From: Candidatus Thorarchaeota archaeon
GTDB lineage: Archaea > Asgardarchaeota > Thorarchaeia > Thorarchaeales > Thorarchaeaceae
Assembly (NCBI GenBank): GCA_003345595.1
Contig: PRDI01000049.1
Location: forward strand, 29,780 to 93,779
Length of the DNA stretch: 64,000 bases
Reading direction: 5' to 3'
Shown: positions 3,543 through 47,707 of the stretch, piece by piece
Layout of the letters: each line of letters begins with the position of its first letter
Numbering within the stretch: position 1 is the first letter of the stretch
Made by a program: the position numbers and the translations under genes
Notes under the pieces: model-generated
The model's input: only the letters and a program-made list of their open reading frames with translations
Database searches by the model: none
Told to the model about the DNA's origin: nothing

Positions 3543-3652
3543 TGGTGCTCCGGCCGGGATTTGAACCCGGGTCTGGGGATCGAGAGTCCCCAATGCTGGG
3601 CCGGACTACACTCGGCCGCACAACGAATCTCACTCGGTGCGACTACCGGAGC
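3543..3652 (-). tRNA. tRNA-Glu(CTC) with a 32-nt intron at 10/11 (intron 3611-3642)
   Basis: Acceptor GCTCCGG/CCGGAGC-ACCA; anticodon arm GGGGA-CTCTCGA-TCCCC; T arm CCGGG-TTCAAAT-CCCGG. Removing 32 nt restores the D-stem GTGT/GCAT (78-nt mature tRNA). Confidence 0.93.
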
Positions 3653-3912
3653 TTGGGCTGTGCCAGCCCGGAGCGGGCATTCACCCTCTACGCAGCAAAT
3701 AAGGCTTTCTCTGTAAAGTCACGATATTTCCAATCTGAATCGGATGTTGGCCTGGAACTCTGGTCTGTCACTCTGCGAATCATCGATAGCATTGGTGTCG
3801 GAGCACTGCCCACATCTCCAATGCGTTTCACCCTAGCTTGTTTACTTTCCAAGAAAACCGATTGTATTCAAACATTCAAGCTGTTTCGACCTGCTTACTG
3901 CAACTGGGCGGA

Positions 3913-4119
3913 CTATGGACCGAATAGCTGGGTGAGACTACTCCAGCTGTCTTGGAGTAGCTGAAGCAGACTGTTCACAACACCTTGTGCCCATCCTGTT
4001 GCTTCAAGGATGACTGCTATTATGATGGATACTGTGACCACAGCTAGACCAAGAAGCAGGCTCTCCTCTACCAAGGGTCCTCCAATCTCATTGTCTTTCA
4101 GCTTAGTCTGCTTCGTCAT
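3913..4119 (-). CDS. Flp/type IV pilin-like small protein with class III signal peptide
   Basis: MTKQTKLKDNEIG|GPLVEESLLLGLAVVTVSIIIAVI: basic leader, Gly at -1, Glu at +5, hydrophobic helix. Own TATA-like element (4152-4161). Adjacent to a secretion ATPase. Confidence 0.65.
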   Translation of the reverse strand: MTKQTKLKDNEIGGPLVEESLLLGLAVVTVSIIIAVILEATGWAQGVVNSLLQLLQDSWSSLTQLFGP

Positions 4120-4280
4120 TTCATGAACCTGTCCAAGGGTTCTCTTCGAGGCTATATTAAGTCCCCATGTTCTTGACGCGGTAATAGCACATCTCTCAGC
4201 AGAGCTCAACATACTCTATCAGGACGTCCAGCACGCCAAAGACTGGCCAACCGTGTGCAAGAACGACATTCGATGCTCTC

Positions 4281-6041
4281 TTAGCCCCGATACAGAAACG
4301 GATGACCATTCTTCCATAGCCTCTCCCCCATGAACATGGTAATGTCCATTTCAGACCCGCCAATCTCGTTTTCAAGTTCATGAAGTAGCCTCTCGTAGGC
4401 GGGCACATGACTTTGAATCCCTTGTTCCCGGGAATGAAGCATGAATGCTCCATCCTCAGCCCACTTCGGGATTCCAGACTTAGCCGGCTGATTCGATAAG
4501 ACTACGTTCAGCCCGGCGAATCTCAGCAGGCCATCGACAACCTGTCTTCTCACTTCAACAACCTCTTTGACTCGTCGTGTGGCATTTCCAGGTGTGGGCC
4601 GCTCCATAGTGATTATGAGGTCTATGAGTGCGACACTCGATTTATCAATGCCATGATCTGATGTCCAGCGAGAAATGAGACTCGATGCAGAATCACTGTG
4701 ACAGGTCTGTATTGTATGAAGACCCGCCGCAATTGCCTGAAACAAAGCACGGCTGTGTTCTGCTGTCTGAATCTCTCCAAGAATCAGATAATCAGGTGAC
4801 CTGTGAAGGCTTTTTACGATCTCCTTGCTCTTGTCGAATCCGGGCTCGTTCTCGTCAACTGGATCGACCCTGATTCTTACTTGGTGACACCCTTTGATAG
4901 ACCTACTTTCGACGGCATCTTCGATGTAGACTCTTCTCCAGCTTCGCGGCGTAGTCATATCAAGAGCATTCAGCAGAGTAGTCTTCCCGGATCCCGGACC
5001 ACCTGTTATCGTAATGTTGAACCTAGCAGACACGGCAAGCAACAGTATCGCCGCAGCCTCCATACTGAGCGTGCCATTGCGAACCAAGTCCGTTATCGAA
5101 TATGGGCTCCTACGGGCCCTACGCATCTCAAGATGTAGTCCGTCTGGGCTCAAGGGTGGCAGGCTCAGAGAGAATCTCAGAACTGCATCACAGACCAACA
5201 TCTCTGTCTTGAGCGATGGGTTTCTCCGATCGAGATGGAAATTGCTCTCGGCCCTCACGAGCGTGACGATACGATCAACATCATGCTCATTGACGGTCGT
5301 TGTTGAACAACACCTTCCGAAACGTCGATGGTCAAAGTAAATCTGACTCTCGGGCCGGTCTAGGTAAACCTCCTCGACTTCGTCATCGAGCAGAATTGGA
5401 AGGAAGCATCTGAGGGCTGTTGATCGATGTGCTACGATTTCTGCGATTCTAGTCCTAGTGATAATGCCTACCTCTGGCAGTGAGTGCGAGATCTTCGCTG
5501 CAACAGATTCAGAGATTCGCCTGAGTCTTATGTTGATGTTTTCTCTGGACAAATGCGGTGCATCATCGAACAGACTCCTGTCGGCACTCAATTCATTCAG
5601 CAATGCCATCTCTAGACGAGTCTTAACTAGCGGGACCGTTTCAAGAAGCAGACCTGAACTGGAGCCATCTTCACGGAAGACTGACAGGTAAGGCCCAACA
5701 AGATATGCTTCAGATAACAGATGAACCGTGTCAAAGAAACGCTGGTCCTCAACGTAGACCGATTCCCAACCCTCCGCATGCCATGGCGGTCCGTTGAGCG
5801 GTTTTCCATCATGTCTTCCAAGATGAATCAGGCCCTTCCCAGGTTCGACTACTAGAATCTTAGTCTTTTGCCCGTCATCAGAACTCGTCAAGGCTAACCG
5901 TTTACATGGCCCCTGCTCTGCATATTCACACTCTGTGCACCCTGTCTTGGGGCATAGGATAACATTGACCAAGTGTTCTATCACACCAATCGGACTCCAC
6001 AGCATCAGATGCGGGCCGGATTCACAAGCCAGAAGCTGCAA
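4281..6041 (-). CDS. Type II/IV secretion system ATPase (CpaF/TadA/VirB11/FlaI family)
   Basis: Walker A GGPGSGKTT, Asp box YIEDAVE, Walker B ILGEIQ, His box QTCHSDS, upstream motif 'LDDEVEEVY'. Confidence 0.9.
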   Translation of the reverse strand: MQLLACESGPHLMLWSPIGVIEHLVNVILCPKTGCTECEYAEQGPCKRLALTSSDDGQKTKILVVEPGKGLIHLGRHDGKPLNGPPWHAEGWESVYVEDQRFFDTVHLLSEAYLVGPYLSVFREDGSSSGLLLETVPLVKTRLEMALLNELSADRSLFDDAPHLSRENINIRLRRISESVAAKISHSLPEVGIITRTRIAEIVAHRSTALRCFLPILLDDEVEEVYLDRPESQIYFDHRRFGRCCSTTTVNEHDVDRIVTLVRAESNFHLDRRNPSLKTEMLVCDAVLRFSLSLPPLSPDGLHLEMRRARRSPYSITDLVRNGTLSMEAAAILLLAVSARFNITITGGPGSGKTTLLNALDMTTPRSWRRVYIEDAVESRSIKGCHQVRIRVDPVDENEPGFDKSKEIVKSLHRSPDYLILGEIQTAEHSRALFQAIAAGLHTIQTCHSDSASSLISRWTSDHGIDKSSVALIDLIITMERPTPGNATRRVKEVVEVRRQVVDGLLRFAGLNVVLSNQPAKSGIPKWAEDGAFMLHSREQGIQSHVPAYERLLHELENEIGGSEMDITMFMGERLWKNGHPFLYRG

Positions 6042-6174
6042 ACCGGAACCGTTTGTTCCATCAGACGGCAGCTACAAACTAAGATGCCGGTTTCACCGAT
6101 TTAAGGCCCCTCAGATGACAATTCGAAATGGCTCCTCCGTAGGTGACACCGGTCTTCGTATCATGAAGCACGTT

Positions 6175-46865: not shown

Positions 46866-47082
46866 CTCAGCGTCACACTCGTGTTACAGATACTGTAAGA
46901 CACCCTAGAGAATCTCGACTACTCCCGTGGTCAGACCGTGGGGTCTGGGCGACATCAGACAAGTCTAATAAAAAGGTTGTGACATGGCTGGTCGTGCCAG
47001 TCCCTTCGCAGTGGTTACGGTCATACACTTCTCAGCAAACTAGATATGTCCTTGAATGATGGCTCACCTAGGGACATCATTC

Positions 47083-47253
47083 ATGACAGAAATAACATGC
47101 CCGCGTTGTGGATTCAAGGATGTCGCATTGGTAAAGAAGGAGGTCCTGAGGGGAGGGAAGATAAACAGAAGGAAGTGGCACTGCCCCCGATGCAGTCATG
47201 ACTGGGACACGGTCACAGACTCAAGTGGTAATCCCGTAACTGAAAAGGGCTAG
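47083..47253 (+). CDS. Small zinc-ribbon protein
   Basis: CPRCG...WHCPRCSHDW. Confidence 0.7.
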   Translation: MTEITCPRCGFKDVALVKKEVLRGGKINRRKWHCPRCSHDWDTVTDSSGNPVTEKG

Positions 47254-47397
47254 CGAAGACTCTGATAGAACCCCGCTCCGTGGGCCTTGCGGCTTTCCTG
47301 TGACCGACCGCTGGATGATATACACTTCGCGGAGCCTCGCTGTTCCTGCAATCCTGCAAAACCATTATATCGCCGACAGCTGCTACAATTCGACTGC

Positions 47398-47519
47398 GCG
47401 GAGGTTGCCAAGCCAGGCCAACGGCGCAGGGCTTAGGATCCTGTCACGTAGGTGTACCCGGGCTGCTTCTTTGTCAACCTGAGACCGAATCGCGAGTTCA
47501 AATCTCGCCCTCCGCACCA
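47398..47519 (+). tRNA. tRNA-Leu(TAG) with a ~34-nt intron at the 3' base of the variable arm (47456-47489)
   Basis: Acceptor GCGGAGG/CCTCCGC-ACCA; anticodon arm CAGGG-CTTAGGA-TCCTG. Excision gives a normal Leu variable arm T-CAC-GTAG-GTG-TTC (88-nt mature). Confidence 0.9.
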
Positions 47520-47608
47520 ACATCACCAAGGCACTACCGACTAGGAACGGGGACCTGCCGAAGTCAATCACTAACGTTATATTCCTCCAGCAAGGACTCG
47601 CTCACGAA

Positions 47609-47707
47609 GCCGGGGTGTCCCAGCGGTAAGGAGACGGTCTCGAAATCAACACACGAGTGAACCGTTGCCCTAGTGGCTCGTGGGTTCGAATCCCATCCCC
47701 GGCGCCA
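47609..47707 (+). tRNA. tRNA-Ser(CGA) with a canonical 15-nt 37/38 intron (47645-47659)
   Basis: Acceptor GCCGGGG/CCCCGGC-GCCA; anticodon stem ACGGT/ACCGT; BHB helix CTCG/CGAG; long variable arm. Confidence 0.94.

Follow-up and report, generated by a model that had tools for sequence, protein, structure and literature searches.

Interrupted tRNA genes and predicted intron histories in a Thorarchaeota genome

The tRNA genes of the window

The stretch of DNA analysed here, referred to as the window, comprises 64,000 nucleotides (nt) of contig PRDI01000049.1 (positions 29,780 to 93,779 of the forward strand) from the Candidatus Thorarchaeota archaeon assembly GCA_003345595.1. It contains five transfer RNA (tRNA) genes with six introns (Table 1), and no intron-less tRNA gene was found in it by any method used. 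These loci are very probably functional Thorarchaeota tRNA genes interrupted by archaeal protein-spliced introns. The comparison with orthologous genes indicates that the introns were inherited within the class, where gains, losses and slight changes of position continue, rather than acquired in a burst in this genome.

The source assembly is a metagenome-assembled genome (MAG) of 2.73 Mb in 129 contigs, with a completeness of 83%. The MCM protein encoded in the window shares 72–81% identity with its closest relatives, of which the named ones are nearly all Candidatus Thorarchaeota MAGs, and only 45–50% with the sequences of Thermofilaceae and other Thermoprotei. Because of this difference, the lineage is assigned by its MCM sequence to the Thorarchaeota (Asgard archaea), and membership in the Thermoproteales does not agree with the identities.

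The genes were detected in a search that takes account of bulge-helix-bulge (BHB) motifs. A candidate was defined as a helix of 4 base pairs (bp) with a 3-nt bulge next to it on each strand. One to three candidates were excised between the 7-bp acceptor pairing and the encoded CCA, and the product was scored as a cloverleaf. The geometry of the motif, with the cut after the second nucleotide of the bulge, was verified on the canonical intron of tRNA-Ser. On the scale obtained from the genome-wide run, real tRNAs score 28–32, the weakest intron-less gene (Cys) scores 25.5 and noise reaches at most about 25. The two strands of the window hold about 6,200 BHB-like candidates, and a cloverleaf score of at least 29 after splicing is reached at five loci only. 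Manual reading of the sequences leads to the same five genes. A strict filter, demanding four of four central pairs, lost the Pro 37/38 and Leu introns and returned false Gln and Gly calls; it was replaced by a relaxed filter combined with the independent cloverleaf score. ARAGORN applied to the spliced candidates gave many false positives and was kept as a first pass only.

Table 1. Interrupted tRNA genes of the window and features of the tRNA-Glu leader
Feature	Position	Strand	Details
tRNA-Glu(CUC)	3543-3652	-	exon 1 3643-3652; intron 3611-3642, 32 nt, at 10/11; exon 2 3543-3610
Acceptor 5′-strand copy (GCTCCGG), tRNA-Glu leader	3668-3674	-	exact; 22 nt upstream of the gene
TATA/BRE-like block upstream of tRNA-Glu	3696-3708	-	AAAGCCTTATTTG; conserved in all orthologues
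tRNA-Gly(CCC)	11576-11682	+	intron 11631-11659, 29 nt, at 53/54
tRNA-Pro(GGG)	22872-23009	+	intron 1 22910-22940, 31 nt, at 37/38; intron 2 22962-22991, 30 nt, at 58/59
tRNA-Leu(UAG)	47398-47519	+	intron 47456-47489, 34 nt, 3′ side of the variable region, 2 nt before position 49
tRNA-Ser(CGA)	47609-47707	+	intron 47645-47659, 15 nt, canonical 37/38

Removal of the inserts leaves cloverleaves with U8, G18G19, U33, a T loop of the type TTCRA and 7-bp acceptor stems. All five spliced tRNAs score 29–31, with lengths of 74–75 nt for class I and 81–85 nt for class II. The repeated ends of the tRNA-Glu insert permit other registers; a BHB motif is formed at 10/11 only. A first-pass annotation of the window had listed the same five genes and six introns, and its positions agree with these results in every particular. 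It was also right that all five genes encode CCA, which terminates 5/5 of them, and that the non-canonical introns measure 29–34 nt. Its description of the introns as unrelated in sequence holds as well: neither with each other nor with the rest of the genome do they show significant similarity, and no donor sequence was found. The expectation that such genes escape routine annotation is borne out by two common tools. With default settings, ARAGORN reports one of the five (Glu) with a misplaced 5′ end, and the Rfam tRNA model recovers four, one of them partially; tRNA-Pro(GGG) is detected by neither.

Splice motifs of the six introns

All six introns sit in a BHB or relaxed BHB motif, with the 3-nt bulges in the right register. 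The central helix is fully paired (4/4) in Glu, Gly, Pro 58/59 and Ser, and has three of four pairs in Pro 37/38 and Leu. In tRNA-Glu, the nucleotides C5–U8 pair with GCCG, both bulges read AG/U (the slash marking the predicted cut) and the intron stem has 5 bp. The motif of tRNA-Gly consists of the central helix CCCG:CGGG, the bulges AG/A and AG/U and an intron stem of 6 bp by the pairing rule. In both genes the outer exon helix is reduced to one pair, which gives the relaxed helix-bulge-helix form (HBh′). The tRNA-Ser motif has the central helix CUCG:CGAG and the bulges AA/A and UG/A, and its outer helix is the anticodon stem. In local minimum-energy folds the whole Ser motif is recovered, and for Glu and Gly the helix appears together with its 3-nt bulge and hairpin.

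The register of the Leu intron is U/A...AA/U, with the central helix AGGU:ACCG. The size of this insert is set at 34 nt because the intron-less orthologues of other genera are 88 nt long, with a variable region of 14 nt. Alternative registers of 30 and 32 nt would leave a variable region of 16 or 18 nt, against the 14 nt of the intron-less orthologues, and were rejected. A mirror-image motif for Leu, in which the 5′ end of the intron and exon 2 form the central helix, was ruled out by geometry. In tRNA-Gly, a register shift that restores a perfect T stem was also rejected: the nucleotide preceding the T loop varies among orthologues and is hence intronic.

Introns in orthologous genes of the class

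Synteny around the MCM gene is kept across Thorarchaeota, which makes the Gly and Pro genes comparable in about 40 loci; gains and losses were counted on a single-gene MCM tree. The introns recur at the same sites to different depths. The Glu 10/11 intron, 29–36 nt long, is present in 25 of 29 Thorarchaeota orthologues and in nine of ten sampled genera, and is absent from one genus only. The canonical Pro intron at 37/38 occurs in all syntenic orthologues (33/33). More restricted is the Gly 53/54 intron (19–30 nt), which is carried by 10 syntenic Thorarchaeota loci and missing from 16. It is confined to one well-supported clade of 14 rows, including the window, and two changes on the MCM tree suffice to explain it.

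The distribution of the tRNA-Pro T-loop intron is patchy. Besides the window gene, it is found in 17 of 33 syntenic loci, and its pattern on the MCM tree demands at least seven changes. Thorarchaeota lineages differ in its register, which is either 58/59, with the helix GUUC:GAAC, or 59/60, with the helix UUCA:UGAA. The intron cores of the two registers are partly similar: they score 16.4 against 12.0 ± 1.0 for shuffled sequence, with 0/300 shuffles reaching 16.4, and they resemble each other more than either resembles unrelated introns. Such similarity suggests that the splice register of this intron may have slid by one base. The 58/59 intron of the window also resembles the 58/59 introns of another clade (score 22, where the null is 13.0 ± 2.3; 2/300 shuffles reach 22). 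The sites compared are 22962-22991 in the window and those at about 15.6 kb in loci L008-L045.

The variable-arm introns of tRNA-Leu are patchy as well; at the same site they occur in several genera and in three isoacceptors. In other genera, the Leu(UAG) gene either lacks an intron or is interrupted elsewhere. In two of these genera (loci L132, at about 1501–1620, and L138, at about 1501–1627), the introns lie in the T arm and near 43/44. Positions so different indicate, by comparison of the sequences, that intron sites turn over within one orthologous gene, tRNA-Leu(UAG).

The pairing required for the motif is kept while the sequence changes. No orthologue of Glu (24 distinct sequences), Gly (10) or Pro 58/59 (9) has lost the pairing of the central helix. 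Four to six compensatory pair types are seen at the first positions of the intron stems, and the remaining intron sequence diverges freely. In Leu, the fourth central pair covaries among orthologues as U-A, U.G, G-C and A-U. The acceptor stem of the split Gly gene also changes in a compensatory manner between lineages, so that the gene is under selection.

An example of a change in the exon is found in the same gene. Position 52 of tRNA-Gly, which lies in the splice bulge, is G in all intron-less orthologues and A, U or G in the intron-bearing genes. This exon change looks as if it were tied to the presence of the intron, and it was compared at 11626-11630 of the window and in the orthologous loci L009-L048. 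The departure of the intron-bearing allele from G52 leads to an A52.C62 mismatch in the spliced tRNA-Gly of this genome. Taken as sets, the orthologues illustrate different intron histories: class-wide retention, a single gain in one clade with a knock-on exon change, and a one-base shift or repeated loss.

Splicing enzymes

The genome has two EndA paralogues. Both EndA domain families, PF01974 and PF02778, match a gene on contig 89 and a second gene on contig 124, and no fused or third copy was found above the cut-off for these families. The product of the contig 89 gene (alpha, 188 amino acids) can be aligned over its full length with 3P1Z_B, the catalytic EndA subunit from Aeropyrum pernix (E 4.5e-49). 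In this alignment the Tyr/His/Lys triad is present, together with the crenarchaea-specific loop (CSL), also named L1, of the form GQPxxxxKPxxAxF, which has Lys at the places of both K44 and R46 of A. pernix. The sequence 3AJV_B carries Ala at the position of the triad His of alpha; it looks like a His-to-Ala variant, pointing to that position as the catalytic His.

The paralogue on contig 124 keeps the Tyr and Lys and has no His at the place of the Methanocaldococcus jannaschii His. It is expected to be the structural beta subunit, as the missing catalytic His would predict. It is longer than the A. pernix partner, and its best matches are from Methanopyrus and Methanocaldococcus, not from crenarchaeal beta subunits. 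The RtcB ligase is encoded in the genome as well. To our knowledge, biochemistry exists for no Asgard EndA.

Hirata et al. (2011, PMC3241643) showed that the CSL loop and K44 confer broad specificity on the A. pernix EndA, and Kaneta et al. (2018, PMC5829648) described (alpha-beta)2 EndA enzymes with the loop named L1 in Asgard archaea. The enzyme of this genome resembles that of A. pernix (3P1Z; PMC3241643) in the end-to-end alignment of alpha, the triad, the loop and the residues aligned to K44 (Lys) and R46 (basic), and differs from it in the longer beta partner with its best matches in Methanopyrus and Methanocaldococcus. There are two separate paralogues with N- and C-terminal EndA domains, and the triad is incomplete in beta. 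By these sequence features, the genome encodes an (alpha-beta)2 EndA of the broad-specificity type, with a correspondingly predicted range of substrates. A broad-specificity endonuclease was anticipated in the first-pass annotation, and the triad and CSL/L1 Lys of alpha, together with the beta subunit devoid of the His, are what such an enzyme calls for.

Explanation and alternatives

In the proposed mechanism, each tRNA gene would be transcribed as a precursor, in which the intron bases pair with the neighbouring exon bases to give a 4-bp helix with 3-nt bulges, as a BHB or a relaxed helix-bulge-helix. The (alpha-beta)2 EndA, with the CSL/L1 loop in its catalytic subunit, would cut after the second nucleotide of each bulge, and RtcB would join the exons.

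The anatomy of the genes, the motifs, their conservation and covariation in relatives and the enzyme genes are seen in the sequences; cleavage, ligation and the substrate range of the enzyme are inferred from them. Several observations weigh against this explanation. The motif of Leu is the weakest of the six: its local fold is no better than that of shuffled sequences, its inner stem has a mismatch and one of its four central pairs is lacking. The Pro 37/38 intron likewise has 3/4 central pairs, and the spliced tRNA-Gly bears the A52.C62 mismatch in the T stem. Finally, each of the five window anticodons has a single gene in the assembly, which speaks for functional genes, but with a MAG 83% complete such single-copy counts are provisional.

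The T-stem mismatch of tRNA-Gly could also be read as a sign of decay, in which case the split genes would be pseudogenes or relics of integration sites that are not expressed as working tRNAs. The arrays of tRNA 3′-half copies on contig 42 and the degenerate-looking Gly-like locus on contig 30 fit such a reading. It is nevertheless very unlikely, since synteny and full cloverleaf potential are kept over dozens of MAGs, the acceptor and intron stems show compensatory changes, the encoded CCA and the promoter-like blocks are maintained and no second gene was found that could serve these anticodons. Even less credence can be given to the inserts being artefacts of assembly or binning: nothing specific speaks for it beyond the fragmented state of the MAG with its 129 contigs, and the same positions are occupied by diverged sequences in many independently assembled genomes, including single-contig assemblies.

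If the genes are functional and split, it has to be considered when the introns were gained. According to the first-pass annotation, the lineage had its own burst of tRNA intron gain. A burst specific to this genome or genus would account for the denser non-canonical introns of the window (4/5 genes, against 10/25 elsewhere) and for the limitation of some introns to a clade, such as Gly 53/54 with its two changes and one clade of 14 rows. It is improbable, as these introns recur at matching positions in numerous further genera of Thorarchaeota. The Glu 10/11 intron in nine of ten genera, the Pro 37/38 intron in every one of its orthologues, the likeness of the Pro 58/59 intron to that of a different clade (22 against 13.0 ± 2.3) and the same-site Leu introns of several genera and three isoacceptors all speak against it. 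The comparison of orthologues thus largely refutes a private burst and favours introns inherited within the class, with gain, loss and small shifts continuing.

A leader copy of the acceptor strand at tRNA-Glu

The tRNA-Glu gene is the only one whose splice helix borrows bases of the acceptor stem. Its leader contains, just downstream of the TATA-like block, a copy of the acceptor 5′ strand. In 28 orthologues, this copy is located at −19 to −25; it is exact in 19, has one mismatch in 8 (including the intron-less genus) and two mismatches in 1. Among the 28 further tRNA genes of the genome that were checked, none has such an acceptor-strand copy in its leader. The Glu BHB helix is predicted to cost 5.5 kcal/mol when the leader is left out and 2.8 kcal/mol when it is included.

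The spacing between the TATA element and the start of transcription in archaea is usually about 26 nt. Given the position of the TATA-like block and this spacing, the start of tRNA-Glu transcription is predicted at about the leader copy. The primary transcript would then appear to open with the copy, followed by a short CUGG. The copy could pair with the 3′ strand of the acceptor and the D-arm, so that bases 5–8 would become available for BHB pairing with the intron's end. It is tentatively proposed that the Glu 10/11 intron may depend on such a cis helper, in which the leader copy stands in for exon 1; the idea draws on the conservation of the copy, its lack in the remaining tRNA genes that were checked and the predicted energies. 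No paper describing a leader copy of this kind was found in the literature. If true, an archaeal intron would here be maintained in a manner so far undescribed, at a site where the folding of the splice motif competes with that of the tRNA, and the leader copy is the one item here worth a bench test.

Genome-wide census of tRNA genes

All 20 full-length Rfam tRNA matches in the genome encode CCA, which the Rfam model does not require, and the genome-wide search was therefore anchored on CCA. The census combined a BHB-constrained scan, an unconstrained scan for single inserts and a scan for a T arm plus CCA. Of the 30 tRNA genes that it recognised, 22 (73%) are split, 16 of them by a single intron and 6 by two, and the other 8 are intron-less. 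The intron-less genes are those of Ile, Gly-GCC, Asp, Ala-CGC, Glu-UUC and Arg-UCG and two of Cys. Two introns are carried by Val-CAC, Pro-GGG, Pro-CGG, Lys-CUU, Arg-CCG and Arg-GCG. The total of 28 introns (about 0.93 per gene) is divided into 11 canonical introns at 37/38 and 17 non-canonical ones, which are located mostly in the T-loop (56/57, 58/59, 59/60), the D-arm and the variable arm. These figures are a lower bound, as genes for about a third of the expected anticodons are missing from the census, which is biased against heavily split genes; the genes left unfound are likely the more heavily split ones.

The window is denser in non-canonical introns than the rest of the genome, with 4/5 of its genes carrying them against 10/25 elsewhere. 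The first-pass annotation had named, as the observation that would speak against it, a genome whose other tRNA genes are mostly intron-less or interrupted at the canonical site only. This is what was found in part: 15 of the 25 genes recognised outside the window are of these two kinds, in a census that under-represents heavily split genes, and the other 10 have non-canonical introns.

ARAGORN reports 12 genes in the genome without its intron option and 21 with it. Default tRNA finders thus recover about a third to two thirds of the tRNA genes, and annotations of Thorarchaeota MAGs can be expected to under-report tRNAs.

Two further loci were noted. The score of a tRNA-Gly(UCC)-like locus on contig 30 (759-908, + strand) falls short of the Rfam cut-off, and its position 33 is C instead of U. 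Its perfect acceptor pairing is 147 nt apart, about 73 nt are additional and lie close to the 5′ end, and the locus is either a heavily split or a decayed gene. A truncated Leu tRNA gene stands at the end of contig 17.

Relation to published systems

Intron-rich tRNA genes of Asgard archaea have already been described (PMC5829648; PMC11291895; Goswami et al. 2026, preprint 10.64898/2026.10.13.758758), as has their type of EndA, and the present case is a well-documented further example. The published introns and those reported here are alike in being of the short BHB type, at canonical and many non-canonical positions, with several genes carrying two introns. They also share the partial failure of gene finders, the (alpha-beta)2 EndA with L1 and repeated gain and loss. 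The retention, gain and loss seen at the level of the class agree with what the 2026 preprint concludes in general for the tRNA introns of Asgard archaea.

The extent of interruption differs between Asgard groups. Valentin-Alvarado et al. (2024, PMC11291895) reported 92–95% intron-containing tRNA genes in Atabeyarchaeia and Freyarchaeia, and in the preprint the non-focal Asgard families have a median of 0.86 intervening sequences per gene (10.64898/2026.10.13.758758). With about 0.93 introns per gene and 73% of the genes split, the genome is near this median and well below the Atabeyarchaeia and Freyrarchaeaceae (about 2.0–2.4 per gene, 92–98% split). The extreme degree of interruption, above 90% split with about two or more introns per gene, is thus not seen in the 22/30 genes and 28 introns counted here, which are lower bounds.

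The Thorarchaeota are unnamed in the main text of the preprint (10.64898/2026.10.13.758758), and the survey of Kaneta et al. (2018, PMC5829648) includes one Thorarchaeota genome, SMTZ1-83. No paper listing the intron positions of Thorarchaeota was found, in a check that left the supplements of Kaneta et al. aside.

A second comparison can be made with the multi-intron tRNAs of the Thermoproteales, in the form in which Sugahara (2008) and Fujishima (2010) are cited in the literature. Non-canonical positions, including the T-loop and the D-arm, relaxed BHB motifs and the dependence on a heterotetrameric EndA bearing the CSL are common to both. The Thermoproteales belong to another phylum, and their introns form families that are read as the result of transposition, whereas no introns similar across genes were found here.

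Copies of tRNA 3′ halves and integration

The first-pass annotation had suggested that introns in the 3′ half might disrupt the attachment sites of integrating elements. No partial copies of the five window tRNAs, of the kind left as attachment-site scars, were found elsewhere in this genome. Copies of 30 nt of the tRNA-Glu 3′ end are present in other Thorarchaeota genomes. A separate group of repeats is found at five sites of contig 42 (6565-30808, - strand) and at 5764 of contig 22, as copies of the 3′ half of the initiator tRNA. They consist of the T arm GGTCG TTCAGAT CGACC, the 3′ strand of the acceptor and CCA. No 5′ half that would match lies close by, and the copies resemble scars left at attachment sites by integrated elements or cassettes. 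Together with the copies of the tRNA-Glu 3′ end, the repeats of contig 42 indicate that integration into the 3′ halves of tRNA genes occurs in the class.

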